Position numbers and translations under genes: made by a program. The notes under the pieces are model-generated. The model had not been told where the DNA came from. It saw only the letters and a list, made by a program, of their open reading frames with translations, and did no database searches. Shown one piece after another: positions 7,430 to 61,086 of a DNA stretch of 64,000 nucleotides. Source of the DNA: an uncultured virus (IMG/VR IMGVR_UViG_3300029288_000087) (lineage: Duplodnaviria > Heunggongvirae > Uroviricota > Caudoviricetes); the IMG/VR virus record IMGVR_UViG_3300029288_000087; one strand, given 5' to 3'. How positions within the stretch are numbered: the stretch's first letter is position 1; each line of letters opens with the position of its first letter.

Positions 7430-8490
7430 TTCGGCCCCACGCCGAGCCCCAAGCGCTCGCGGTTGTACTTTGCCTTGGCCTTCTCGCACCAGTCCAGGTG
7501 CTCCAGGTACCAGCGGACGGTGTGGCGTATGTCTTTCTCGAAGTCGCGCTTCGGCAACCACCCCGTATGCCTCCACAGCTTCGATGCTTCGATTGCGTAG
7601 CGAAAGTCGTGCCCCGGGCGATCCGTCACGAACCCGATCAGCCTGCGGTATCCGTTCTGGTTCTCTCGTAGCCAGCTGAGCGCGTCGCAGATCGAATGCA
7701 CGACCTGTAGCGTGTTCCGCTCTTGGCTACTACCAATGTTGTAGACCTCCCCAGGCGTCCCATCGGTCGCCACACGTATGAGCGCTTCGCAGTGGTCGTC
7801 CACATGGATCCAGTCACGCACGTTCATGCCGTTGCCGTAGACCGGGATGGGCTTGCCCTCGATGGCGTTCAAGATCGTGAGCGGGATGAGCTTCTCGGGG
7901 AACTGGTAGGGGCCGTAGTTGTTCGAGCAGTGCGTGATGATCGTCGGCATCCCGTAGGTCTTGTTGTACGCGCGCACGAGGTGGTCCGACGCGGCCTTCG
8001 TCGCTGCGTAGGGTGAGTTGGGAGCATACGGGCTGTTCTCGGTGAACTTCGCGTCATCCATCCCAAGCGACCCGTAGACTTCATCGGTGGAGACGTGGAT
8101 GAATCGGCACGAGCCTGAGCAGCCGCTGCCGCTGCTCCAGTAGTCCTTCACGGCGTTGAGCATCCTCGCTGTGCCCGCAACGTTGGTTGACACGAACGGC
8201 ATGACCCCGTCGATGGATCGGTCCACGTGGGTTTCAGCGGCGAGGTGGAACACGACCGTGGGCTTGAACCACGCAATCTCGTTGTAGAGATTGCCGGTCC
8301 TGATGTCCAGATCCGCAAACTCGAACCGAGGATCTTCAGCCACGTCGGCGAGGTTCTCCATGCTGCCCGCGTAGGTAAGCGCGTCAATGATGTACACGCT
8401 GACCTCGGGCTCCTTGAGCAGCATGCGCACAAGGTTCGATCCGATGAAGCCTGCGCCACCCGTTATGACGTACCTCTTTTCGCCGCTCAC
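7426..8490 (-). CDS. rmlB: dTDP-glucose 4,6-dehydratase
   Basis: TGGAGFIGS, AAETHVDRSI, STDEVYG, YAATK and NNYGPYQFPEKLIP motifs. Confidence 0.97.
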   Translation of the reverse strand: MSGEKRYVITGGAGFIGSNLVRMLLKEPEVSVYIIDALTYAGSMENLADVAEDPRFEFADLDIRTGNLYNEIAWFKPTVVFHLAAETHVDRSIDGVMPFVSTNVAGTARMLNAVKDYWSSGSGCSGSCRFIHVSTDEVYGSLGMDDAKFTENSPYAPNSPYAATKAASDHLVRAYNKTYGMPTIITHCSNNYGPYQFPEKLIPLTILNAIEGKPIPVYGNGMNVRDWIHVDDHCEALIRVATDGTPGEVYNIGSSQERNTLQVVHSICDALSWLRENQNGYRRLIGFVTDRPGHDFRYAIEASKLWRHTGWLPKRDFEKDIRHTVRWYLEHLDWCEKAKAKYNRERLGLGVGPK

Positions 8491-14722: not shown

Positions 14723-15196
14723 TCACCGGAAACTGAAAGCGATCGGGTCCGCGATGAGAAGCTCGCCGGGCTGGGCTGGCGCAAGCGAAGCTCCCGCTCT
14801 GAACTCCACGCCCTTCCCGCTCTTGCCGAACAGCGTCAGCAGGGACCGCACGTCGGCCCAGGCGCTGTTGAACTCCGCAAAGACGGTCTTCAGGTCGGGG
14901 GCCTTGCACATCTCGATACAGGCCACCAGGACCGAGTTCGCGGCCTTCAGACCCGCGCCAGCCTTCGCCAGGGCGTCGCGCAAAGGGCCCTTCACGTTTT
15001 CGGGCATGGGCACCGTGTCCACGATGCTCTGCACCTGCGCGAGCGCGAAGGCAGCATCCGCAACGATGCTCTCGGTCTTCACCAGCACCGGCATCACGAC
15101 GTTGCACTTGTTGCATCCCGACGTGGTGATCGCCGCGCCGATCAGCCCGGTCACCACCAGCAGCCCAAGCATGAACGAAACGAAGAAATGTCGCAT
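14723..15196 (-). CDS. Putative lipoprotein (spanin-like, lysis context)
   Basis: Signal peptide ending TSGC, followed by helical segments. Confidence 0.55.
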   Translation of the reverse strand: MRHFFVSFMLGLLVVTGLIGAAITTSGCNKCNVVMPVLVKTESIVADAAFALAQVQSIVDTVPMPENVKGPLRDALAKAGAGLKAANSVLVACIEMCKAPDLKTVFAEFNSAWADVRSLLTLFGKSGKGVEFRAGASLAPAQPGELLIADPIAFSFR

Positions 15197-15205
15197 CCTG
15201 TCCTC

Positions 15206-15442
15206 CTATTCGGGCATCGGCGGCAGCATGATCCGCGGCACGATGTCGTGCGTGTGAAAGTTCGCGAAGTGCTCGATGCGCCAGTAGGCCATGTCGGGGC
15301 CACGAATGCAGACCCAGTCGAATAGCTCGCCGCACTTGTCGCACTCGGCGTGGATCTGGATCTGCCCGCGCCGCATCCCGACCAGCGCGTACTGCACATG
15401 CTGCACGCGAGGGTGACGAACCATCTGCACTGCGTTGCTCAT
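15206..15442 (-). CDS. Small hypothetical protein (CxxC / HxxxH)
   Basis: ECDKC...HFANFH; RBS GAGG. Confidence 0.65.
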   Translation of the reverse strand: MSNAVQMVRHPRVQHVQYALVGMRRGQIQIHAECDKCGELFDWVCIRGPDMAYWRIEHFANFHTHDIVPRIMLPPMPE

Positions 15443-15445
15443 TCC

Positions 15446-15661
15446 TCAGCCTGCCCCAATATCTTTGCAGAAGCCCCACTTGAGCTGCTTGCACGCGAGG
15501 TACAGTACCACGGCGAAGCTGCCCATGCCTAGAGCTGCCTTCTTGGCCTGCGCCACATCCTCGTTGCTCATCTCCGGAGCGTCCTGGACGATCTTGATTG
15601 CGGCGATCGCGCCCAGCCCAACGATGAGGCCTCCTGCGAGCTGTTGGCGGGTCAGCGTCAT
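15446..15661 (-). CDS. Small two-TM membrane protein
   Basis: MTLTRQQLAGG...; ATGA overlap. Confidence 0.65.
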   Translation of the reverse strand: MTLTRQQLAGGLIVGLGAIAAIKIVQDAPEMSNEDVAQAKKAALGMGSFAVVLYLACKQLKWGFCKDIGAG

Positions 15662-16239
15662 TTGCTCGCACTCGCCGCCGGGACCGGCTTCGACGTTGTC
15701 CTGGCGACCGCGACGTTGACCGCGTAGGTCGCCACCGATCCGACGATGAGCATGGCGAGGCCCACAACGGCTGTGAACCGCGCCTTGCTCCACTCGAACT
15801 TCTGCGTCTTGAGCACCATCTGGCTCGCGTGCGCCGCTCCCAGCTTGCTCTCCAGGTCTCGGATATAGAACACCTTGCTGTTCTCGGACATGTCCTCCAA
15901 CTTCTTGGTGATGTCCGTCTTGCCCTGCTCGACCGCCCCGAGCCGCTGCTCGATCCCGCCGTGCTTGAGCGAACACACGCGGTCCTGATCGAGCTTCATC
16001 TCGGTGAAGCGCCGATCCACTTGCTGGGTGTGGCTGGTCAGTGTGGAGTTCAGCGCGATGACACCGTCCGCGGCATGCGTGGTTGCGGCCATGATCTTGC
16101 CGAACATCTCCGTGATCTCACCGCCGCTGTCTCGCACACCCTGGAGTCCTTCCTTGATCTCCTTCAGCTCACGACCATGCGCCGCGAGAATCACGCTATG
16201 CTTCGCGACCGTTGTCTCAAGAGGTTCCGGAGGGGCCAT
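15658..16239 (-). CDS. Coiled-coil protein with C-terminal TM
   Basis: Heptad pattern followed by FTAVVGLAMLIVGSVATYAV. Confidence 0.7.
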   Translation of the reverse strand: MAPPEPLETTVAKHSVILAAHGRELKEIKEGLQGVRDSGGEITEMFGKIMAATTHAADGVIALNSTLTSHTQQVDRRFTEMKLDQDRVCSLKHGGIEQRLGAVEQGKTDITKKLEDMSENSKVFYIRDLESKLGAAHASQMVLKTQKFEWSKARFTAVVGLAMLIVGSVATYAVNVAVARTTSKPVPAASASK

Positions 16240-19346: not shown

Positions 19347-21758
19347 CTACTCCTTAGCCGGCTCTTCCGGAGCCGCCTCCGCCTCGGGCTCCTTCTGCTG
19401 CTTGGCGATGAATTCCGCCTGCACCTTCATGAGCACGCGCCACACGTCGTCCAGGTAGCGCTTGCCCTTGCCGGTTGCCAGGACAGTCCCGCTGGTCGCC
19501 GGGTCACTGCGCAGGCTCGCGACAAACCTGTCCTTCTCGATGACCTGGGGAATCATCACGACGGTGCTCTCGCCGTTCTGCTCGATGAATGTCTTGACCA
19601 ACACCTCGGGCGGCACCCTGTGAGAGCACGCCTCCTTGATCGTATTCACGAGCCCAGCAACCTGCTCGCGGTTGATCCCTGGGATCCAGTCGAACGAGGA
19701 CCACGGCTCCTTCTTCGGCGCGACGTTCTGCTTGGCCGCGGGCTGCGACACGGGGGTGTCTGCCGCAACGGCCTGAGCCGCCGTCACAGGCCCCTGCGGA
19801 GCCTGTTCGATGACCACTGGCGGCGGGTACTGGGGCTGCTGCACGGGCTGCTGCGGGGCCTGCCGCATCGGCTGCTGCGTGATGGACGGCTGCGTCATCG
19901 GGTTGAACGGGACCGGAGGCATGCCGGGACTGCGCGACGACATGCGGTTGTGCTCGTCTGCGCTCACCTGCGGCCCCGGCAGGTTGTCGAACGAAGACTG
20001 CACGGCTGGCCCCTCGCTGTCGGCGAACTGCACCCGGTGCACACGCCTGGGCGGAGGCAGCATCTGACGAGCCTGCTGCACGGGAGGCACCTGCTGCACC
20101 TGCACCTGCTGCACAGGAGGACTACCCTTCTGGAGCAAGTCCTTGATCTGTGGGATCAGCGTGTCGGCCTGGGAGATGGCCATGAGGATGGCCTTCTGAT
20201 ACCAAGGCGCGTTCGCCGCAGCCGCCGCCATCGCGGCCTCTTCTGGAGTCGGCCCGCCTTCCTTCTCGTCTGTCGCGATCCCGAGCGCAACGGCGGTCTC
20301 CCGAAGCTCCTGCACCTTGTTCAGAAGCGGCTTGTTCTGCTCCGCGAGGTGGGCGTTGACGAGCTGCGCCTTGCTCTGGAGATCCGCCACCGTCGCGGCA
20401 AGCTGGTTCTGAAGCGCGCGCACCTCGAATCCGTGCGCCGCATCGAGCGTCGTCTTGGTGTTCGTCTCGACCGCCTCGCGCATACGCGTTTCGCGATCGT
20501 GACTGCGCTGGATGTCGTCGAGCCGCTGTTGCCCGATGCGCTGCGCTTCTTCCATCGACCGCTTGTGCTCTTCGCGAAGGTAGCGCTCACGCCGATCGAA
20601 GTCGTCCTTCAGCTCGCGCTCCCGGCGTTCGATGATCGTATCCTTGTCGCGCATGCGATCTTCAAGTGAAGCAACACGGGTCTGCATCTCGGACCGAACG
20701 CGCTCGACCTCGCGCTCCTTCTCTCTCTTCTCGATCTCGATCAGCCGCTCGAACTCCCGCTGCCTCATCTCCATCTCGCGTGCGTGCTGCTCCTGCACCG
20801 CGCGCATGTCATCGGAGTTCGCCCCGCCGCGCACCGACGAGTTGATCAGCGCAACGGCCTTGACCATCTCGACCATGTCGTTGGGCTTCTGGCCGATCTC
20901 GGCGATCTGCCTGCGCATCTCCATCATCTCGGCTTGCTTGGCTTCGAGCTGACGTTCCAGAAGCGCAACTTGCTGCTGCGCCATCTCCTTGGTCGAGTCG
21001 ATCGCGCGCTCCTGCTGACGACCCATCACGCTGAAGACCGTATCGGGCAAGCCCTGCTGAGCCTGCTGCGGCCTGTTTGCCATGCGCTCTGCGAAGCTCA
21101 GAAATGGCGCGTAGTCTTGCGGCTGCTGTTGCTGCGGCATCTGCATGCGCATGCCCGCGCCTCCGTAGGGGCTGCCACCACCCGGGAACGTGAACACCAT
21201 AGGTCCCTCACTACTCTCGCTGTCTGCGATCGGAAGGCTCTGCATGTTGGGATCGACAGGTACGGAGAACTCCGCAACGGCAACATCCACCAGCGCGGGA
21301 GGCCCGCCCATGTTCGAGCTGTCACCTTGCTCCATCACGCCGTAGACCCGGTACTTGTACCCGCCGTAGAGCCGCAAGAACTCCTGCGTGCCGATCATCA
21401 TGTTGTGCATGCCGACGATACCGGAAACGCGCTGGCGCTGCCCCGTGCCGGGATCGAGATGCCACTCGGGCTCGATGCGCTGTACGCGCAGCTTGCCGAC
21501 CTTCCGGAGATCCGGGTACGCGCTGTACATCGTCTCAAGAGATGGGAACTTCGGCACGTTCATGCCGCCGCGGCGACGGCTGATCTCGGCACGCCGCTCG
21601 ACATCCTCCATCGGCGCGCGCGACTCGGGAAGCGATCCCATGTCGATCCCGCCCATCGGATCGTACGAAGTAGCAGCAGGACCGCCTGATCGACGGCGCG
21701 CGGGGAACGGGAGTTCGGGCAGCGGCTGTTCTTCAGCCGTCGTGGGTTCGTCGGCCAT
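19347..21758 (-). CDS. Large (803 aa) coiled-coil, Gln/Pro-rich protein
   Basis: Long E/R-rich coiled coil; PQ-rich linkers; RBS GAGGT. Confidence 0.85.
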   Translation of the reverse strand: MADEPTTAEEQPLPELPFPARRRSGGPAATSYDPMGGIDMGSLPESRAPMEDVERRAEISRRRGGMNVPKFPSLETMYSAYPDLRKVGKLRVQRIEPEWHLDPGTGQRQRVSGIVGMHNMMIGTQEFLRLYGGYKYRVYGVMEQGDSSNMGGPPALVDVAVAEFSVPVDPNMQSLPIADSESSEGPMVFTFPGGGSPYGGAGMRMQMPQQQQPQDYAPFLSFAERMANRPQQAQQGLPDTVFSVMGRQQERAIDSTKEMAQQQVALLERQLEAKQAEMMEMRRQIAEIGQKPNDMVEMVKAVALINSSVRGGANSDDMRAVQEQHAREMEMRQREFERLIEIEKREKEREVERVRSEMQTRVASLEDRMRDKDTIIERRERELKDDFDRRERYLREEHKRSMEEAQRIGQQRLDDIQRSHDRETRMREAVETNTKTTLDAAHGFEVRALQNQLAATVADLQSKAQLVNAHLAEQNKPLLNKVQELRETAVALGIATDEKEGGPTPEEAAMAAAAANAPWYQKAILMAISQADTLIPQIKDLLQKGSPPVQQVQVQQVPPVQQARQMLPPPRRVHRVQFADSEGPAVQSSFDNLPGPQVSADEHNRMSSRSPGMPPVPFNPMTQPSITQQPMRQAPQQPVQQPQYPPPVVIEQAPQGPVTAAQAVAADTPVSQPAAKQNVAPKKEPWSSFDWIPGINREQVAGLVNTIKEACSHRVPPEVLVKTFIEQNGESTVVMIPQVIEKDRFVASLRSDPATSGTVLATGKGKRYLDDVWRVLMKVQAEFIAKQQKEPEAEAAPEEPAKE

Positions 21759-21772
21759 GAGCTACCTCACCT

Positions 21773-21883
21773 GTCGCAGACATCGGCCTGTACGCCGTTG
21801 GTTTTGATAGCTCATCGAGCTTGGCGAATCCGTCATCGAAGCCGTGTTGCAGATATCGGCCTGCGCGCCATTGGTTTCGATCG
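21773..21883 (-). CRISPR. CRISPR-like mini-array 1 (repeat, 35-nt spacer, repeat)
   Basis: Repeats 21773-21810 and 21846-21883 (73-bp period). Spacer 21811-21845 matches 21960-21994 inverted at 30/35. Confidence 0.7.
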
Positions 21884-21910
21884 CTACGGGATCGTCGGCC
21901 ATGATCCACC

Positions 21911-22363
21911 TCAGTTTGGTTCAGGCTCGTCGGGCTCTTCTTCGATGACGAGATCCTTGACACCCTCGATGACAGATTCACCAAGCTCGATGAGATCGGC
22001 GAGCTGCGCAGCGATCGGAAGCCCCTGCTTCTTGGACTCCGCATGCTGCGCCTTGAAAATCTCAACGGCCTTCTCGACGAAGGCGAGGATCTTGTCGGCG
22101 TCTTCCTGTTCGAGCTGGCTCGCGCCTTCGGCCTCTTCGAGATCCGCGATCGCGTCTTCGTGGCGCACAACGGCGGCGGCGCACACTCGCACGTCTTCGG
22201 CCAGCATCTTGAGGTTCGGCAGAAGATCATCCTGGATGAAGTCGTGCAGATCGCGAGACCCCTCGTCGGTCTTCACGTCGTTGTCGATCTTCTTCGCGAG
22301 CTTGTCGAGATTCTCCAGCACCATGTCGATCTTCAGCACATCGCCTTCGGTCTCGTCACTCAT
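21911..22363 (-). CDS. Acidic helical hypothetical protein; its 3' end holds the protospacer of array 1
   Basis: 150-aa ORF with RBS GAGGT. Confidence 0.8.
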   Translation of the reverse strand: MSDETEGDVLKIDMVLENLDKLAKKIDNDVKTDEGSRDLHDFIQDDLLPNLKMLAEDVRVCAAAVVRHEDAIADLEEAEGASQLEQEDADKILAFVEKAVEIFKAQHAESKKQGLPIAAQLADLIELGESVIEGVKDLVIEEEPDEPEPN

Positions 22364-23003
22364 CGGTCACCTCTTGGAACTCATCCTTGTCGAGAACCTT
22401 CTTGCCCGCTTCCACATCTTCCTTCGTCTTGAACATGCGGTAGCCCTTGATCTTGCGCGGAGCCTCGCGATCGCCAGAGCCCGCGCCCTCGACGATGACG
22501 CGCGCCTTGCCGATCTCGATCTTCTCCGCGTCGATCGCGTCCAGCACGTTCGTCGCCGCGGGATCAGGCGGATCGCGGAACTCGCAATCGAAGATGGCCG
22601 AGTCCTTCAGACACATCGCTGCGCCATTGATACCGCGAAGCGCTTCGACGGTGCAGAACCGCTCGATGAGCGCAAGGTCGGGAATGTCCGGGCTGATCAC
22701 GCGCTGCCTCTTGTAGAAGCGGCACTTACCGAGCCGGGTCAACCGGCCCTTCTTTGGATCTGGCTCTTGTTCCAGACACGAGAACGTTTGCGGGCACAGC
22801 GGAGGAGGAAGTGCCTGAGAGAAGGTCCACGGCGGATCCTTCTCGATCGGCATACCGTCCGGTCCGTCTCGGTACTCGGGCTGCGCAGGCCGGAATTGCT
22901 CGAAGATGCTGCCGCCGGGAGTCGGGCTTCCGGTTTCAGTCTCCTCTTCGTCGGCTTGTTCTGCTAGTGTCTCGTCCTGTTCGATCGTGGGGTCATCAGC
23001 CAT
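22356..23003 (-). CDS. Hypothetical Cys-containing protein
   Basis: MADDPT...; leaderless after the promoter at 23011-23039. Confidence 0.8.
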   Translation of the reverse strand: MADDPTIEQDETLAEQADEEETETGSPTPGGSIFEQFRPAQPEYRDGPDGMPIEKDPPWTFSQALPPPLCPQTFSCLEQEPDPKKGRLTRLGKCRFYKRQRVISPDIPDLALIERFCTVEALRGINGAAMCLKDSAIFDCEFRDPPDPAATNVLDAIDAEKIEIGKARVIVEGAGSGDREAPRKIKGYRMFKTKEDVEAGKKVLDKDEFQEVTDE

Positions 23004-23045: not shown

Positions 23046-23372
23046 TTAGGGGGTGCCTGTTTTCCCGGAGGTTGCGGATATCGGCCCGCACGCCGTTGGT
23101 TGATCGCCATGATCCTCGTTGATACGTCGCACGATACCTGCGAGTTGCGGATATCGGCCCGCACGCCGTTGGTTCTTGAGGCGCAGTATCCTCTTCGGGC
23201 GATAGCCGCAGCACAGATCGCACACGAGGAACGAGGGTTCCTTCACGGTCGAGCCCTTCAGATAGGGACCAGCGTAGAGCGTGGGGACGACGCGCCCGCA
23301 CCACATGCACGGGCGATCGGGCACAACGTCGAAAGGTTCCCACTGCACGGGGATTTTGGGCCAGTGGCTCAT
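23046..23372 (-). CDS. Small Zn-finger-like protein whose 3' end runs through mini-array 2
   Basis: CMWC...CDLC; promoter TTGCCA-17-TACCAT at 23411-23383. Confidence 0.55.
   Translation of the reverse strand: MSHWPKIPVQWEPFDVVPDRPCMWCGRVVPTLYAGPYLKGSTVKEPSFLVCDLCCGYRPKRILRLKNQRRAGRYPQLAGIVRRINEDHGDQPTACGPISATSGKTGTP
23071..23181 (-). CRISPR. CRISPR-like mini-array 2 (repeat, 37-nt spacer, repeat)
   Basis: Identical 31-bp cores at 23071 and 23144 (73-bp period). Spacer 23107-23143 matches 23015-23051 inverted at 27/37. Confidence 0.7.
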
Positions 23373-23552
23373 GATGGGCCAGATGGTATCGCAGGGTCGT
23401 ATAGTTGGCAAGGGGATGTGATGACAAATAGAGGACGCGCGGCACCAAGTGAGGGGGGGAGGACTCGGTCTGCCGCGCGCCAGATTTCGGCCCAAGGTCG
23501 CGATGCGTCTTCGTGGGCCTGAACGGTAGGGTATGCGCAACGGCCCCGCCCG

Positions 23553-24648: not shown

Positions 24649-25086
24649 TCAAGCCACCAACTTGAGCCGCGCCCTGAACAGCCGGTTCTTGGTGGTCGAG
24701 TCGTTGGCCGCATCGGTCCCAAGCACGGCATCGACGATGGCGCTCCGATCCACAACGGGCATGGCGTCAACCTGCTTCAACACGCTAAGCAGTCTCGCCC
24801 GCGCCTCGATGAGGCTGTCGATGGTGCAGCTGGTCTCGAACTCGGGGACCACAACGGCGGCATGTCGGCAGCGGTCCCGCTTCACTTCGAGGCACTTCAT
24901 GATGACGATGTGGTGCAGCCACGTGCTGACCTTGCACCTGCCATCGAAGGGAGCCGTGAGCGCCTTGATGAACGCCCACTGCACAATGTCCTCCGCATCC
25001 TCGCGGCTGGCCATGATGCGCTGCGCGGCAGCGACGAGCCGCGCCCGGTGCGCCCTGCATTCCCGATCCAACGCCTGCCTGTCCAT
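24649..25086 (-). CDS. ECF-type RNA polymerase sigma factor
   Basis: EDAEDIVQWAFIKA...FDGRCKVSTWLHHI (region 2); TKNRLFRARLKL (region 4 end). Confidence 0.8.
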   Translation of the reverse strand: MDRQALDRECRAHRARLVAAAQRIMASREDAEDIVQWAFIKALTAPFDGRCKVSTWLHHIVIMKCLEVKRDRCRHAAVVVPEFETSCTIDSLIEARARLLSVLKQVDAMPVVDRSAIVDAVLGTDAANDSTTKNRLFRARLKLVA

Positions 25087-25631
25087 CGGACAACCGATGG
25101 TAAGCACGCGCCGCGCCGCTTGCAAGAGTCGCCGCGCGCATGGATACATGATCGAGCGTTCCGACGTTCCTACGATCCATATCCTCTCATACGAGGTCGC
25201 GTCAGCGTTGTGGTAAATGCAAGCTCAACCCAAGCGCCTTCCGATCTCGCAGGCGAGGATCATGCTTTAGCGTTCTGGGTGAAGCAGAGGCTTCGATCCA
25301 ACCATCCCGCTGAAGCGGCGTCCTCCCCTTCCGATGCCATCCTCTCGGAACGAGGATACACATATCACCAACTGATCCAGATCCCGATTCGAGGAAACAC
25401 CTCGGTCTCATCCAAACGTTCGTACCCTACGGGCACTCACTGGGAACACGAAGCGTTATGGCGAATCGGGAAATACGCCACGACGTAAGGTAGATCCCTA
25501 TTAGGCCAGAAAATGGATGGGGTCCACAAGTGAAAAGTGAACGTAGCGTGCCACGATTTCAAAATAGGTAGCATAATGTGAGCGCTATACACACAAAGCG
25601 CGCGACGGATTGGTTGATAGCTGGAAGCGTT

Positions 25632-53811: not shown

Positions 53812-53841
53812 TTGACACCGTTGCGGATCTTGCCGTAGACT
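53812..53841 (+). promoter_or_regulatory. Promoter upstream of the core/capsid operon
   Basis: TTGACA-18-TAGACT. Confidence 0.6.
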
Positions 53842-53913: not shown

Positions 53914-53944
53914 TTCCAACGGCGTGCAGGCCGATATCTGCAAT
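53914..53944 (+). repeat. Solo fifth copy of the mini-array repeat
   Basis: CCAACGGCGTGCAGGCCGATATCTGCAA, 26/28 identical to the array-2 core. Confidence 0.85.
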
Positions 53945-53953
53945 CATCACCCG

Positions 53954-56386
53954 ATGGCACGAGGAAGGATTTTCCGGATCACGAAGGCCCAGGCAAAGGC
54001 CTACGAAATCCTGGATCCGCCCTCGACGCGCTCGGCCCGCCCGAACCCAGGCGTCACGGCCATCATGGGGATCACCAACGGTCGCGGAGCTGCGAAGCGC
54101 GGGGCTCGCAAGGGCAAGGCTCGCAAGTCGGTCCGCATGCTCGGCGGCATCAGCTGCCCCAAGACGGCTCCGAAGAAGCACCGCATGGCAGGGGCGACGA
54201 AGCGCTCAGACTACGCGCTGCCGCAGTGCTTCCACTACCCGGTGCGCACGCGCGGCAAGGCTTCCGTCTTGAAGATCCGGCGAGCCCTGACCCGCTACGG
54301 CACGCACAAGAGCAGGTACTCGCCCGCCGTCCGCAGGCAGATCGAGCGCGGGATCGCGAAGGCTGCGAAAGAAGCCGGGATGACGAGTCCCGTGGCGATG
54401 AAGTACCGCAAGAAGTTCGCACTGGCGAATGCAAAAGGAGAAAGCCCCATGTTCGTCGTCCCCAATGCCGCGCGCAAGCGCGCAAGGCGCAAGTCCAAGT
54501 CGCGCAAGCTGTCCCCGGCTCATGCCTTCTTCTTGTACCCGACCACCAAGGGCAAGATCGGCGCGTCGGCGTCCCCGAACCGCAAGCGCAAGGCGCGCAA
54601 GGCCCGGAAGGGTGCTCGCAAGCTGAAGTTTGGCTCGCCCGCATGGCAGAAGAAGTTCAACCCGCTGTACGGCGGCAAGGGCAAGACGCGCAAGGGCAAG
54701 AAGTCGACTGCCAAGCGTCGGACCGCGCGTCGGATGGTTACGTCGGGCGTTCGTCGCGTGACCGTTCGTCGTGGCAAGGGCAAGCGCCGCAGCGGTCTGA
54801 GCGTCGCTCTGCGCAACATGTCGATCCTTCCTGCGGTGCCGAACAAGCGTCGCCGCTCGACCAAGAAGTACAGCGCCGCGTGGCATCGCAAGATGACGCA
54901 TGCGGTCGCGAACCGCTATCGTCGGCGCGCTCGGCGCAACGCAGAGGGCGAGGGGATCTTCTTCCCGGGCGAGGGCGGAGGTTCGTTCATGGACGAGCCC
55001 TCCACCATCATGTCCGAGGCGCAGGAGAAGAAGCTCGCTGCTGCCGCCACTGCCGAAGGCATCGCTCAAGACATGTTCAAGACTCAGGCGGATTTCGACG
55101 CGTGGTTCGCGAACATGTACAAGAGCAAGACGTTCCGCAAGTTCTACATGTCATTCAGACGAAGGCGCACTGCGCTCTCCAAGCGAGGTAGGAAGATGGC
55201 AACCAGGAAGAAGGGCAAGAAGGCTGCGGGCCGCAAGCCTCGCAAGGGCAAGAAGGCTCGCAAGGCACGCAAGGGAACCCGCAAGCTGAAGTTCGGCTCG
55301 CCCGCATGGCGCAAGAAGTACGCGCGCAAGATCGCGGCGGGTCGGCGCAAGGCGAAGCGGCACGGCACGCGCAAGGCTGCGAAGCGTCGCAAGAGCGGCT
55401 CGCGCAGCAAGCGCCGGGTCACGCGTCGTCGAGGCACCGCACGTCGTCGGAGCGCAGCGCGCCGCCGCACGGGTGGTCGTAGGCTCAAGTTCGGCTCGAA
55501 GGCGTACAACAAGAAGTACGCGGCCAAGCGCAAGCGCAACCTTCGGTCGGCGAAGCGTCACGGCAAGCGCAGGGCTCGCCGGAACTTCAGCTTCCGTGCC
55601 ATCCCGAACCAGCTGCTCATGCGCGTCAAGGCCATGGCGATCCCTGGGCTCATCGCGCTCGGTGGCTACGCCATCCATCGCGTTGTGACCAAGGTTCTGT
55701 CCAAGGCCATCGGCGGCACGGTCACGAGCTACGCCGAACCCCTGAGCGGGCTCGTCGCGATCGCGGCTGGCACCTGGGCGGTTGGCAAGTTCCTGCCGCA
55801 GCACTCTCATGCTGCGATCATGGGCATGGCCGTCAGCTTCGGCGCGTTGCTCCTCAAGAGCTTCCTGCCCGACGTTGCGACCTACCTGGGCATGGGCTCG
55901 GTCGGATCGCAGAACCAGCGCGTGCGCTGGGGCATGCAGGGACCGGAGTTCATGCAGGCGGCTGCTGGCCCGGAGTTCATGCAGGCGGCTGCTGGCCCGG
56001 GGTTCCTCCAGGCGGCTGCTGACTACTACCAGCCCGCGAGCGGGATCGGCGAGTACGTCAGCGATGGTTCGCTCTCTCCCGTGAGCGACTTCGGCGAGTA
56101 CGTCGCGAGCAATCTCGACGTGAGCGGCTGGGGTGACTACGAGGTGAGCACCCAGTACCAGACCGGCGCGGACGGCTACGGAGCCATCAACGACGGGATC
56201 CAGCCGGGCGGCAATCTCGATCAGCAGTTCAACATCATGGAAGCGGCGGCGGGGCTCGGTCTGAACAGCCCCGGCAGCTCGTCCACCTACGTCCCGCACG
56301 AGGGCATGCGCAACGTGGCCTCTGCGGAATCGAGCGACAGCTCGGGCGTGTTCGATGTCGGCGGAGGCAACGGCGTCCTGGGCTGA
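53954..56386 (+). CDS. Very Arg/Lys-rich protein with TM block and acidic Gly-rich tail; putative DNA-condensing core (poly)protein
   Basis: About 540 aa basic region with repeated PN/AN/RN and LKFGS motifs, then 3 hydrophobic helices, GPEFMQAAA x3 and GEY repeats; start codon uncertain. Confidence 0.75.
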   Translation: MARGRIFRITKAQAKAYEILDPPSTRSARPNPGVTAIMGITNGRGAAKRGARKGKARKSVRMLGGISCPKTAPKKHRMAGATKRSDYALPQCFHYPVRTRGKASVLKIRRALTRYGTHKSRYSPAVRRQIERGIAKAAKEAGMTSPVAMKYRKKFALANAKGESPMFVVPNAARKRARRKSKSRKLSPAHAFFLYPTTKGKIGASASPNRKRKARKARKGARKLKFGSPAWQKKFNPLYGGKGKTRKGKKSTAKRRTARRMVTSGVRRVTVRRGKGKRRSGLSVALRNMSILPAVPNKRRRSTKKYSAAWHRKMTHAVANRYRRRARRNAEGEGIFFPGEGGGSFMDEPSTIMSEAQEKKLAAAATAEGIAQDMFKTQADFDAWFANMYKSKTFRKFYMSFRRRRTALSKRGRKMATRKKGKKAAGRKPRKGKKARKARKGTRKLKFGSPAWRKKYARKIAAGRRKAKRHGTRKAAKRRKSGSRSKRRVTRRRGTARRRSAARRRTGGRRLKFGSKAYNKKYAAKRKRNLRSAKRHGKRRARRNFSFRAIPNQLLMRVKAMAIPGLIALGGYAIHRVVTKVLSKAIGGTVTSYAEPLSGLVAIAAGTWAVGKFLPQHSHAAIMGMAVSFGALLLKSFLPDVATYLGMGSVGSQNQRVRWGMQGPEFMQAAAGPEFMQAAAGPGFLQAAADYYQPASGIGEYVSDGSLSPVSDFGEYVASNLDVSGWGDYEVSTQYQTGADGYGAINDGIQPGGNLDQQFNIMEAAAGLGLNSPGSSSTYVPHEGMRNVASAESSDSSGVFDVGGGNGVLG
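55940..56020 (+). repeat. 27-bp tandem repeat x3 (GPEFMQAAA)
   Basis: GGMCCGGAGTTCATGCAGGCGGCTGCT repeated; third copy degenerate. Confidence 0.9.
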
Positions 56387-56515
56387 GCCAGGGCGAAGTG
56401 ATCGGATCCGGATAGTGGCAGGAGCAAGCTAGGAAACGTCAGTCTGGAGAGCCAGCGGCATAGAGGAACCAGCCTCTCAAATCATGGTACCGCTGGCAGA
56501 AAGAGAAACGCAGTC

Positions 56516-57280
56516 ATGGCAAAGATTCTCAACATCCGCGAACGTGTTCATCAACCCTTTCGTGACGCGCTGTGTCGGACAGCCGGTCTGTTTCAGGGTG
56601 CCCTGAATCAGACGACCGACTTGTTCATCACGCAGGGGCGTGACGAGGGCTTCACGAACCTCAAGACGAGCGCCGTGCTTCCGAACGACTCGTCCATGAT
56701 CATCCTCGCGGCGAGGGTGCTTCAGTGGTTCCGCGCTCCGGTGCGCCGCAACTTCAATCCGGATGGCACCGTTCTGACGAACGGCGACTACGGTCCCATC
56801 GGCCTCGCGGCGTGGGTGTGGCCGAACGGTGCGGGCGCAGTCGCGCTCGGCAACGCCCCGGCGAACTACGAGGACGTGTACCGCATGCACTGGCAGTGCG
56901 CCGAGGGTCTGTTCTGGACGATCGGCGCTGGCGAGAAGGACTCGCTGCGCAGCATGCCGACGATGTACTTCCCCATGGGCGGCGGTCTGCACGGGGACAT
57001 CGGCGGGGCGACGGACCTCATCCACTTCAACAACGGCTCACCGAGCCACACGTCGATCCTTCGGATCGCGCGCGCTATCACCATCACCCCGCGCCAGCTG
57101 ATCAAGGCGCAGGTGACCGCCGTGTCGTACCCGGCTGGTGGAAACCAGACGATCTTCGGCACTTCGACGGCGCAGGGGCGCGACATGCTGAACCCGATCA
57201 GCAACCTGAACTGCGTCGATGCGATGGGCAAGGTCGTTGCCCTCGTGATCGACGGGTTGCTGAGCCGCGACGTTCAGTAA
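56516..57280 (+). CDS. Putative major capsid protein, paralogue 1 (jelly-roll inferred)
   Basis: QPFRD...LF...TNL...LP pattern; strong codon bias; lies after the core protein; near-duplicate follows. Confidence 0.55.
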   Translation: MAKILNIRERVHQPFRDALCRTAGLFQGALNQTTDLFITQGRDEGFTNLKTSAVLPNDSSMIILAARVLQWFRAPVRRNFNPDGTVLTNGDYGPIGLAAWVWPNGAGAVALGNAPANYEDVYRMHWQCAEGLFWTIGAGEKDSLRSMPTMYFPMGGGLHGDIGGATDLIHFNNGSPSHTSILRIARAITITPRQLIKAQVTAVSYPAGGNQTIFGTSTAQGRDMLNPISNLNCVDAMGKVVALVIDGLLSRDVQ

Positions 57281-57296
57281 CCAGAACAGGGCAGCC

Positions 57297-57327
57297 GCCC
57301 CGGAGACCCGATCTCGCGCTCCGGGGC
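57297..57327 (+). terminator. GC-rich hairpin between the capsid paralogues
   Basis: GCCCCGGAG-N13-CTCCGGGGC; no U-tract. Confidence 0.5.
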
Positions 57328-57358
57328 GTCGGTCCATCACTGGAAAGGAAGGCTCCTC

Positions 57359-58177
57359 GTGGCCAAGATTCTGAACATTCGAGAGAGGGTTCACCAGCCC
57401 TTTCGCGACGCGCTGTGCCGCACGGCGGGCCTCTCGCGAGGCAACCTGAACCAGACAACCGACCTGTTCATCGCGCAGGGCCGGGACGAAGGTTTCACGA
57501 ACCTCAAGACGAGCGCCGTACTTCCGAACGACGCGTCCATGATCATCCTCGCGGCCCGCGTCATGCAGTGGTTCCGCAGGCCGGTCCCTCGCGATATGGC
57601 CGATGCCACCAACGTCACCCTGAACGGTGACTACGGGATGATCGACGGAACGGTCCCGTTCGCGTGGCCGAATGCGGTCGGTGGCGTAGCAGAGGGAAAC
57701 GCTCCTGGGCTACACAACGATGTGTACCGGTTGCACTGGCAGTGCGCCGAAGGTCTGTTCTGGACGATCGGCGCTGGCGAGAAGGACTCGCTGCGCAGCA
57801 TGCCGACGATGTACTTCCCGGCAGGTGGCGGGCTTCACGGCAAGATCGGCGCAAGAACAGGCATCATCTGGTGGTTCGACAGGCAGGGGCAGTACGTCCA
57901 CTTCCATGCCCCGCTGATCCACTACAACAACGGCTGTCCGACGCACACCGCGATTTTGCGGCTCGCGCGCGCCATCACCATCACCCCGCGCCAGCTGATC
58001 AAGGCGCAGGTGACGGCGGTCCGCTATCCCGATGGCGGCAACGCCACGCTTTTCGGGACAACGACCGCCAATGGCCGGGACATGCTCAACCCGATCGACA
58101 ACCTCAACGCCGTCGATGCGTGCGGCAAGGTCGTGTCCCTGATCCTGGACGGCCTCCTGAGCCGTGACGTGCAGTAG
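57359..58177 (+). CDS. Putative major capsid protein, paralogue 2
   Basis: Same first 24 aa and DGLLSRDVQ end as paralogue 1; GTG start; extra loop GIIWWFDRQGQYVHFHAP. Confidence 0.55.
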   Translation: MAKILNIRERVHQPFRDALCRTAGLSRGNLNQTTDLFIAQGRDEGFTNLKTSAVLPNDASMIILAARVMQWFRRPVPRDMADATNVTLNGDYGMIDGTVPFAWPNAVGGVAEGNAPGLHNDVYRLHWQCAEGLFWTIGAGEKDSLRSMPTMYFPAGGGLHGKIGARTGIIWWFDRQGQYVHFHAPLIHYNNGCPTHTAILRLARAITITPRQLIKAQVTAVRYPDGGNATLFGTTTANGRDMLNPIDNLNAVDACGKVVSLILDGLLSRDVQ

Positions 58178-58279
58178 CCGGATGCGGGCAGACGCGCCCG
58201 TAAACGGTCCTCAAGTCTGATTGGTCTCGCGCCGGGCGGCAGCGTCGGCCACCCGGCGCTCCGCAAGGAGCGAACCAAA

Positions 58280-60138: not shown

Positions 60139-61086
60139 ATGCAAACACCCGCATCGTCAGGATTCAATCTCACGCGCTGGTACTTCTACGCAGACGCGGA
60201 GAGTACGAAGCAGGCCGCGTGGTCCGTGGACAGGGACGCGCTGTACGTCGTGCGCTTCTTCGTCAAGAACTGGAGCCGGGAGTCGCAGCTCTCAACGAGC
60301 GGGGGAGCAAGCGGCAGCAGCTGGAAGCTGTTCAAGAACCTGTGCGGCGTTCTCGCGCGAAGCATCGAGCGGTACACGGTGCGCGGCGTGACGATGCTGC
60401 ATGTCGCGAAGATGACCGATCAGATCGGCGTGCTCGCCCCCCTCTGGAGCCTTGATCGTCTTGGATGGATGGACACGGACGAAGGCTCGTGGATCATCGA
60501 TCTGGTGATCAGGGCAGATGACGACCAGACCATCTTCAAGCCAGAACTCGGGGTATGGACCGCCGAAGTTGCAAAAGCGCTTGCGGGAGCAGGGTACCAA
60601 AGCCCTTCTGTCCACGTCATGGGCATCGTTACGCTTCATTGCGGACCGAGCACTTCGGTATGCAGGCTCAACACCCCACAGGACTCCACTCCGGAAATCA
60701 CAGCCGAGGTCGAGTCGTACTGGATGGGGATGCCAGACCTGATACGCGTCACGCTTCCGAAGGCGGAGCTGGATGCCGGGAAGACCGAGCCCCATACCGA
60801 GCTTCTCGACCCGTACGTGGACTGGTCAACGAAAAGGAGCTGCATCGGCTACGGCGGCGCGCAGTACGCTATCGGGCTTCACGACCACATCGGCCTGTAC
60901 GGCGAGCTGAAGCCCATCTTCGAGTGCTCTGGGACGAAAGAGACGATCCTGGACGACATCGCGAAGGCGGTGCCGAAGGCCGCTGCCACCGTGGCTGGCT
61001 TTTCGACGAGCCAGAAGATCGTGGTCGGGATTTTTGTCCTCGCGGGCTTCGTGATTGGAGTGAAATGGCGTAGAATGCGCGTATGA
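60139..61086 (+). CDS. Hypothetical protein with C-terminal TM
   Basis: IVVGIFVLAGFVIGVKWRR. Confidence 0.7.
   Translation: MQTPASSGFNLTRWYFYADAESTKQAAWSVDRDALYVVRFFVKNWSRESQLSTSGGASGSSWKLFKNLCGVLARSIERYTVRGVTMLHVAKMTDQIGVLAPLWSLDRLGWMDTDEGSWIIDLVIRADDDQTIFKPELGVWTAEVAKALAGAGYQSPSVHVMGIVTLHCGPSTSVCRLNTPQDSTPEITAEVESYWMGMPDLIRVTLPKAELDAGKTEPHTELLDPYVDWSTKRSCIGYGGAQYAIGLHDHIGLYGELKPIFECSGTKETILDDIAKAVPKAAATVAGFSTSQKIVVGIFVLAGFVIGVKWRRMRV

Follow-up and report, generated by a model that had tools for sequence, protein, structure and literature searches.

Virus-borne CRISPR mini-arrays have reportedly been surveyed before, by Faure et al. and Medvedeva et al. In Cas12a (type V-A) systems the 3' part of the repeat carries the handle, a 5-bp stem adjacent to the guide with pseudoknot contacts; the order is repeat then spacer, and no trans-activating CRISPR RNA (tracrRNA) is used. 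Virus-borne mini-arrays, solitary repeat units and RNA anti-CRISPRs (Racrs) are described by Camara-Wilpert et al. (2023; PMC10651486). Cas12r of the Thermus Lalka phages is reported to combine a TnpB-like effector with a short array, to use CRISPR RNA (crRNA) only, and to need just a single repeat (10.64898/2026.04.20.719267). Type V-U, the arrays-only Cas12s, arose from TnpB about 50 times, according to Altae-Tran et al. (2023; PMC10691335). The subject of the present analysis is a repeat in 64,000 nucleotides of DNA (the window, meaning the whole stretch that was analysed) from an uncultured virus, IMG/VR record IMGVR_UViG_3300029288_000087; the window is the first 64 kb of the 134,037-nt contig C3. 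The repeat is very probably the CRISPR repeat of a family of TnpB-like effectors.

A direct repeat of 31 nt occurs five times in the window, at 21773-21803, 21846-21876, 23071-23101 and 23144-23174 and, inverted, at 53914-53944. On the plus strand the repeat reads GTTGCGGATATCGGCCCGCACGCCGTTGGTT; in the sense of the genes it reads AACCAA-CGGC-G-TGCAG-GCCG-ATAT-CTGCA-AC. Minus-strand genes occupy about 5.8-26.4 kb of the window, and from 26.6 kb onwards the genes are on the plus strand. Given this switch of strands at about 26.4-26.6 kb, all five copies are therefore co-oriented with local transcription. The first four copies form two pairs, called mini-arrays 1 and 2 below. The start-to-start distance is 73 nt in both, and the intervening 42-nt sequences are unrelated to each other, so that each pair has the constant repeats and the spacer of similar length seen in CRISPR arrays, with two repeats only. 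The copies at 23071 and 23144 are identical. A degenerate 18-mer, with up to three mismatches allowed, matched the window 7 times where 1.78 matches were expected, a number reached in none of 100 shuffles; five of the seven are the repeat copies, and the 3-mismatch matches at 60421 and 60856 are due to chance. No sixth copy was found in the rest of the 3.57-Mb, 205-contig assembly, and 15-letter strings of the motif were not found in the published literature. The parts of the repeat loci in the window are as follows.

23144-23174, minus strand: first repeat of mini-array 2 in transcript order (core 23144-23168, AACCAA 5' part 23169-23174), 9 of 9 pairs
23102-23143, minus strand: spacer of mini-array 2 (spacer 2), 42 nt, or about 37-38 nt on the assumption of a full repeat of 35-36 nt, the length in viral contig G097 (see below)
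23071-23101, minus strand: second repeat of mini-array 2, 67 nt ahead of the ATG of gene 22356-23003
21846-21876, minus strand: first repeat of mini-array 1, TGGC variant, with C.A at the outer stem pair
21804-21845, minus strand: spacer of mini-array 1, 42 nt, of which 21811-21839 (spacer 1) is the reverse complement of 21966-21994 at 27 of 29 positions
21773-21803, minus strand: second repeat of mini-array 1, degenerate, with an A.C mismatch, a U.G wobble and a loop change
53914-53944, plus strand: solitary repeat, its core at 53920-53944 with the end AAT; an ATG lies 9 nt downstream

An earlier note, made from the letters of this DNA, had proposed that the repeat works as an RNA read in the direction that ends in GCAAC, that a stem lies next to the guide along with a pseudoknot, and that a tracrRNA may not be needed. 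The paired A-T to G-C change on which it drew is real: the stem TGCAG/CTGCA of the copy at 53914 is TGCGG/CCGCA in both 23071 and 23144. Equally real is the claimed pairing of CGGC with GCCG in the loop, the copy at 53914 reading CGGC-G-TGCAG-GCCG-ATAT-CTGCA-AT, and the TGGC variant at 21846 does keep the pairing (TGGC...GCCG) through a U-G pair. The last 25 nt of each repeat are predicted to fold as a compact H-type pseudoknot, in which a 4-bp helix (positions 1-4 with 11-14) is interleaved with a 5-bp helix (6-10 with 19-23) and followed by AC.

Covariation among homologues, which the note had named as a check on this fold, was found for both helices. Five genomes were scanned for segments with at least 19/25 identity, or with at least 8 of the 9 pairs and at least 15/25 identity. 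Of the 37 hits, 19 were kept (18 with at least 19/25 identity and one array member at 18/25 with nine pairs); the other 18, with 15-17/25 identity, were dropped as chance before covariation was counted. All 18 copies with at least 19/25 identity have 8 or 9 of the 9 pairs. In an alignment of 24 copies, 99.0% of the pair cells are standard pairs and five of the nine pairs are changed on both sides; on four of five measures the observed value was attained by none of 500 shuffles, on the fifth by one. The larger alignment has 41 copies in 40 distinct rows, drawn from 13 sequences of viral or metagenomic origin; many rows come from arrays within one genome and are not independent. Of its 360 cells 98.9% pair, whereas shuffles give 88.5% and a slid partner 6-47%; the shuffles reached the observed value in 0 of 500 cases on four measures and in 7 of 500 on the fifth. 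Three of the four pairs of the first helix and two of the five pairs of the second are changed on both sides in these 41 copies, so that two interleaved helices covary. At the innermost position of the first helix, A-U, C-G, G-C, U-A and U-G pairs are all found. The wobbles leave the strand unsettled, the sense strand having 6 wobble and 4 unpaired cells and the other strand the reverse. Rfam 15 gave no match in the window at the gathering score, and the window contains no tRNAs. With E values up to 5, four motif-bearing loci had no Rfam 15 match besides the tRNAs of G002, a 221-kb viral contig; the matches below threshold, to the tRNA-Sec model and two plastid untranslated-region models, lie over the G002 tRNA genes only.

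The repeat is linked to an effector in other viruses. A looser scan of viral contigs added G097, G098, G099 and G100, and the whole records were then searched. G097 has ten repeats on one strand at 15132-15787, with a period of 71-75 nt, followed by a truncated eleventh. Its repeat is about 35 nt long, consisting of CAACAACCAA and the core, and its spacers, 36-40 nt, are all different. Conservation in this ten-repeat array ends at the AC after the stem, in agreement with the proposal that the guide starts 2 nt after the stem. The array begins 8 nt past the stop codon of a co-oriented gene for a 434-aa protein, which ends ...CSQCGH...CPACGHREDRDVNAARNI, the zinc-finger and RuvC-III hallmark of TnpB/Cas12. 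This protein passes the NCBIfam model guided_TnpB (NF040570) with 109.5 bits against a cut-off of 100, and is far below the cut-offs of Cas12f2 and C2c8 (V-U2), the clade scoring 38 bits against 450 for Cas12f2 and 36 against 350 for C2c8, within a range of 35-43 bits for either model. It carries the Pfam Cas12f1-like TNB and IS605 OrfB helix-turn-helix (HTH) domains, and the nearest solved structures are ISDra2 TnpB entries. In G098, three repeats follow a gene whose product has 41% identity to the G097 effector; the same repeat therefore forms an array beside a TnpB-family gene in two viruses, the kind of co-occurring effector family that the note had suggested looking for. One further repeat in G098 (G098:63128-63152) lies 39 nt upstream of the effector start and recalls crRNA-like autoregulators.

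A third locus occurs in the assembly of the window itself. At C12:6496-8870, a TnpB-like protein of 447 aa that shares 35% identity with the effector of G097 is encoded just ahead of a 15-repeat array; the repeat, 36 nt long, is another one, and the spacers measure 19-39 nt. Judged by eye, this repeat has the same layout, ATG-G-CCCGG-CAT-TCT-CCGGG-AC, with a 3-bp helix, G, a 5-bp helix and AC. The neighbours of the C12 locus are phage-like (family A DNA polymerase).

Residues D260, E342 and D417 and the zinc-finger cysteines (CxxC...CPxC) are invariant in all 11 aligned members of the effector family. A single RuvC/zinc-finger effector, as in type V, is adjacent to and co-oriented with the array in G097, G098 and C12, and is not present in the window. 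All three loci lie among phage-type genes, with no Cas1, Cas2 or Cas4 near them. About 104 relatives of the effector in the protein collection are named only 'transposase' or 'hypothetical'. The contigs with the repeat or the effector have about 58-63% G+C. No anti-repeat of at least 9 nt was found on either strand within 5 kb in G097, nor any partial repeat copy outside the G097 array; on the sense strand, complementarity to the repeat reaches at most 8 nt near the three effectors, and at most 7 nt around those of C12 and G098. These figures are consistent with a crRNA-only, tracrRNA-independent operation, such as is reported for Cas12r. Judged by its sequences, the system is an unnamed, adaptation-less, virus-borne, type V-like one, with a TnpB-family protein of 434-447 aa as its predicted RuvC nuclease.

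The window pairs share the geometry and the repeat family of the G097 array and are therefore mini-arrays, and the copy at 53914 is a solitary repeat. The repeat family, its pairing and its linkage to an effector in other viruses are direct observations; with the layout of the C12 repeat, the effector-linked arrays and the covariation support the RNA reading put forward at the outset. A profile of the effector family matched 3 of 15 sequence sets (G097, G098 and C12) and nothing in C3 over its whole 134 kb; the window arrays are therefore orphans, which the note had not foreseen. From this we infer how the window copies may work. The segment 23071-23174 would be a repeat, a spacer of about 40 nt and a repeat on a large phage-like or mobile element, transcribed together with the local genes and then processed. 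The pseudoknot would be the effector-binding handle, with the guide directly 3' of it. Since the element encodes no such effector, the crRNAs would be loaded in trans onto an effector supplied by a co-resident virus or the host, and would direct it to targets, most likely in a conflict between related elements. On the statement as a whole, an orphan mini-CRISPR array with a covarying pseudoknotted repeat and a guide function in trans, we are evenly divided. Further features of the window that bear on this are listed here.

23383-23411, minus strand: TTGCCA-17-TACCAT, resembling a sigma-70 promoter, some 210 nt upstream of mini-array 2; a consensus match only
21966-21994, plus strand: near-copy of spacer 1 in the adjacent gene 21911-22363 (minus strand; frame from the stop at 21911-21913)
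21748-21769 and 21892-21913, minus strand: 22-nt direct repeats bracketing the mini-array 1 cassette, 20 of 22 positions identical, of the form Shine-Dalgarno-ATG-GCC-GAC-GA
53812-53841: promoter-like site TTGACA-18-TAGACT, about 73 nt upstream of the solitary repeat; a consensus match only

The promoter-like site of mini-array 2 is one where 0.3 were expected, and a terminator-like hairpin (23434-23446) immediately precedes it. The 21773 copy of mini-array 1 lies 14 nt upstream of the ATG of an 803-aa gene. Minus-strand open frames at 21762-21902 and 23046-23378 cross the mini-arrays, the repeats of each pair being read in different frames. One of them encodes 46 aa, has a good Shine-Dalgarno sequence and starts MADDP like its neighbours; the other, Cys-rich and about 110 aa long, begins at a promoter-like site. 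Both are probably leaders rather than genes.

Spacer 1 (21811-21839) matches the neighbouring gene at 21966-21994 in 27 of 29 positions (E about 1e-5). The two differences, GGT/GGC and TCT/TCC, are at third codon positions and synonymous. The copying of a neighbour's gene with synonymous differences only suggests the targeting of close relatives. Similarly, the last spacer of G097 matches the downstream AAA_24 gene in 27 of 28 positions, with differences that are synonymous by eye. Both spacers are as expected if they had been taken from the allele of a close relative, in which case the mismatches would spare the carrier. The first spacer of C12 has an inverted match of 23 of 24 positions inside its own effector gene (7608-7631), which is possibly autoregulatory.

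Several observations weigh against a guide function of the window arrays. No effector of the family is encoded on the 134-kb contig, and the sole relative in the assembly, that of C12 at 35% identity, is paired with another repeat. The window arrays consist of just two repeats each, the 21773 copy is degenerate, and a stem pair is broken in two copies, 21773 (A.C) and 21846 (C.A). No protospacer was found for spacer 2, the rest of the assembly lacking any match of at least 14 nt and INPHARED any match; spacer 1 matches only the element's own gene and may have arisen by accident or for a regulatory role. In other viruses the majority of copies stand alone, 0-130 nt ahead of gene starts, a placement equally compatible with a decoy or a cis-acting role. 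No array with this repeat was found in 93 genomes of the host phylum, and a scan of genome contigs gave 42 single chance matches and no array, with a pattern that demanded TTGG and could miss variants. One match in the host-phylum set (G068:C28:39403-39423, 21 nt) lies within an elongation factor P gene (...AQVQADIRNL...) and is chance coding sequence; it illustrates how the letters of the motif arise in GC-rich genes. A host CRISPR array as the source of the repeats was rejected, as none was found in the 13, 22 or 93 genomes of family, order and phylum. Neither the motif nor the window spacers were found among the INPHARED phages.

The handle also occurs in viruses in which no effector was found. 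The effector-family profile had no match in G001, G002, G024, G025 or G099. G001 and G002 have the core without change; the two contigs have no protein in common and, a few weak hits apart, share none with C3 either, and neither has a sigma factor gene or a TnpB domain. G001 carries five solitary copies, four of them between genes of its head-to-tail (late structural) operon; the fifth lies upstream of a tRNA and a clamp gene. G002 carries two solitary copies, and the core is found ahead of five clustered tRNA genes. Besides two solitary copies, G024 has, at G024:54616-54751, four tandem copies with a 37-nt period and identical 12-nt linkers, hence without spacers, about 106 nt upstream of the genes for the small and large terminase subunits. 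G025 and G099 have one solitary copy each. A metagenome scan listed at least 120 loci; the 25-nt core is present in at least four fragments among the matches listed (L129, L149, L169 and L171) and is invariant at every copy in them. In L171 a pair of repeats is 72 nt apart, matching the period of G097.

The foremost alternative is that the repeats are transcribed only as an RNA decoy, similar to a Racr, which soaks up the TnpB-like effector of a rival or of the host, the spacers being filler. The counts of solitary copies in effector-less viruses (five in G001, two in G002, one each in G025, G099 and, at 53914, the window) and the four spacerless tandem copies of G024 would be natural for a decoy, and the solitary and tandem copies of G001 and G024 fit solitary repeat units or RNA anti-CRISPRs at least as well as they fit guide production. 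The solitary window copy lies about 73 nt past TTGACA-18-TAGACT, and solitary units often follow a predicted promoter (PMC10651486); type V-A Racrs that inhibit Cas12a are also reported there. The copy at 53914-53944 is, like a solitary repeat unit, on a virus, away from cas genes and behind a promoter, the promoter being a consensus match only. However, the window pairs and L171 keep the 72-73-nt geometry of true arrays, which a decoy does not need, and spacer 1, with its synonymous differences only, looks acquired from the gene of a close relative. Moreover, four of the five G001 copies lie inside a late structural operon, late for counter-defence. A decoy is judged an unlikely explanation of the window copies.

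Decay is a second alternative. The mini-arrays and the solitary copy would then be functionless remnants of a lost effector-array locus, or debris of recombination. The lack of an effector on C3 would be in keeping with this, as would the state of the 21773 copy, which has three changes and one broken pair. Mini-array 1 is bracketed by the 22-nt direct repeats, and one low-depth contig of a C3 relative skips 21759-21935, so that mini-array 1 is apparently absent from it; this is weak evidence, as one side of the joint is 29 nt. Short contigs of C3 relatives are present in three other runs. The copies of mini-array 2, however, are identical and fully paired, and all five window copies retain the orientation of the local genes. 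The 18 copies with at least 19/25 identity in the five genomes keep at least 8 of the 9 pairs by means of compensatory changes, which argues for selection on the fold even in genomes without the effector. Decay of the whole set is quite unlikely.

The third alternative, a cis element independent of CRISPR (a promoter, or a signal for RNA processing, stability or translation) that is shared by the viruses of one host and was borrowed by TnpB-like systems, is very unlikely. A site for a promoter or host factor was favoured at first, on account of the copies just upstream of gene starts and of the core in the nearly unrelated G001. The copies indeed occupy small intergenic spaces where the flanking genes run in one direction, with a start or a tRNA gene 0-130 nt downstream; several of those starts have no Shine-Dalgarno sequence, one G001 copy directly follows a terminator-like hairpin, and C3, G001 and G002 have no protein in common. 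The promoter or operator reading was dropped because both helices covary, which speaks against a plain double-stranded DNA site, and because the true array of G097, with unique spacers beside the gene of an RNA-guided nuclease, explains the sequence directly. In addition, the motif lacks sigma-70-like spacing, its spacing is off by one for sigma-54 (by eye, against the consensus), and no copy occurs in the rest of the 3.57-Mb assembly.

Other candidates can be dismissed briefly. A promoter for the element's own sigma factor (24649-25149) was rejected for the lack of such a gene in G001 and G002, and a search for a protein common to the motif-bearing viruses found none among C3, G001 and G002. 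The spacing does not fit sigma-54 and FliA-like promoters (by eye, against the consensus). A coding repeat is rejected, since the reading frame varies among the copies and, by eye, their substitutions are radical. For a ToxI-like type III antitoxin, the tandem array of G024 is followed by terminase genes and not by a toxin; a search of the assembly for ToxN gave no match and is little informative, as the control genomes were also unmatched.

Contig C3 looks like a phage or another mobile element. The genes of the window include RecE/RecT, an AEP primase, an AAA_25 helicase, an NlpC/P60 domain and an extracytoplasmic function (ECF)-like sigma factor (Sigma70_r2; 24649-25149, minus strand). Farther along C3 are a protein with an integrase domain, a methylase of the Dam type and an IS605-type TnpB. 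Most genes are without a family. Scans of the 60 window proteins with Pfam and PHROGs found no Cas protein, and no Cas1 was found in the 3.57-Mb assembly. A search of IMG/VR with two of the element's proteins found no close relatives. The contig's own TnpB (C3:125324-126985, 553 aa, with TNB and HTH domains) was rejected as the partner of the repeats, as it has no match to the effector-family profile; ten further TnpB-domain matches occur elsewhere in the assembly. An extremely basic protein of 810 aa is encoded at 53954-56386 of the window. It has three KARKARKG..RKLKFGSPAW.KK motifs (direct repeats at 54590, 55253 and 55451), a hydrophobic segment and three 27-nt tandem repeats (55940-56020), and matches no family. 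At 56514-58198 is an adjacent pair of paralogous genes, of 254 and 272 aa, with 77-81% DNA identity over about 730 nt.

The analysis ties a 25-nt puzzle sequence to a family of RNA-guided nucleases that is publicly labelled 'transposase' or 'hypothetical', and the covariation supplies a testable model of the secondary structure of the handle. If the crRNA-only reading holds, an effector of 434 aa with a handle of about 25 nt would be attractive as a compact editing tool. Handles without an effector, spread across unrelated viruses, are a natural test case for the hijacking or jamming of virus-borne CRISPR at the level of RNA, and the window copies may arm, jam or merely remember a TnpB-like effector. 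A wider proposal is tentative and rather doubtful: that virus-borne TnpB-like nucleases of 434-447 aa work with crRNA alone, through the 25-nt pseudoknot handle, and are central to an arms race of virus against virus in which handle-only viruses hijack or jam them. If so, some viruses would carry effector and array, and many unrelated ones, including the window element, only the handle; mini-arrays would hijack the nuclease of a rival, solitary or tandem copies would jam it, and the system would be among the smallest single-RNA-guided nuclease systems.

Compared with the known systems, the window loci resemble the virus-borne mini-arrays and Racrs (PMC10651486) in arrangement. Common to both are one or two repeats carried by a virus or mobile element without neighbouring cas genes, a repeat that matches a full locus elsewhere, an upstream promoter-like site, and a spacer resembling the gene of a close relative. 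They differ in that the matching full loci are here on viral contigs (G097 and G098) and not on a host chromosome, and in that the effector is a TnpB-like protein of 434-447 aa. With Cas12r the effector-linked loci share a phage-borne TnpB-like effector, an array that follows within a few bases and a lack of adaptation genes. The Lalka repeats, in contrast, are degenerate and 29 bp long, and the clade is suggested to be specific to thermophiles (10.64898/2026.04.20.719267), whereas here the repeat is 31-36 nt with a covarying pseudoknot, at about 58-63% G+C; the two systems are likened by description and not by protein sequence.

The predicted handle would resemble that of Cas12a in the 5-bp stem beside the guide, in the pseudoknot contacts and in the order of repeat and spacer. 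Relative to Cas12a, the effector of the window repeat type is one third the size and scores as TnpB, and the helix lengths and the loop of the handle differ.

The TnpB omega-RNA (PMC10097598) resembles the present system in the protein family (NF040570 is passed, and ISDra2 TnpB is nearest) and in the position of the guide 3' of a structured scaffold. The omega-RNA, however, is one long RNA that overlaps the end of tnpB and has a single guide, whereas here a short repeat is combined with differing spacers; no tnpB adjoins the window repeats, and the 553-aa TnpB of C3 is outside the effector-family profile. With type V-U (PMC10691335) the system has in common a small TnpB-like effector that is linked to a CRISPR array without cas1, cas2 and cas4. 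The effector clade is set apart from Cas12f2 and C2c8 by its NCBIfam scores, and it may be one of the V-U variants listed by Altae-Tran et al.

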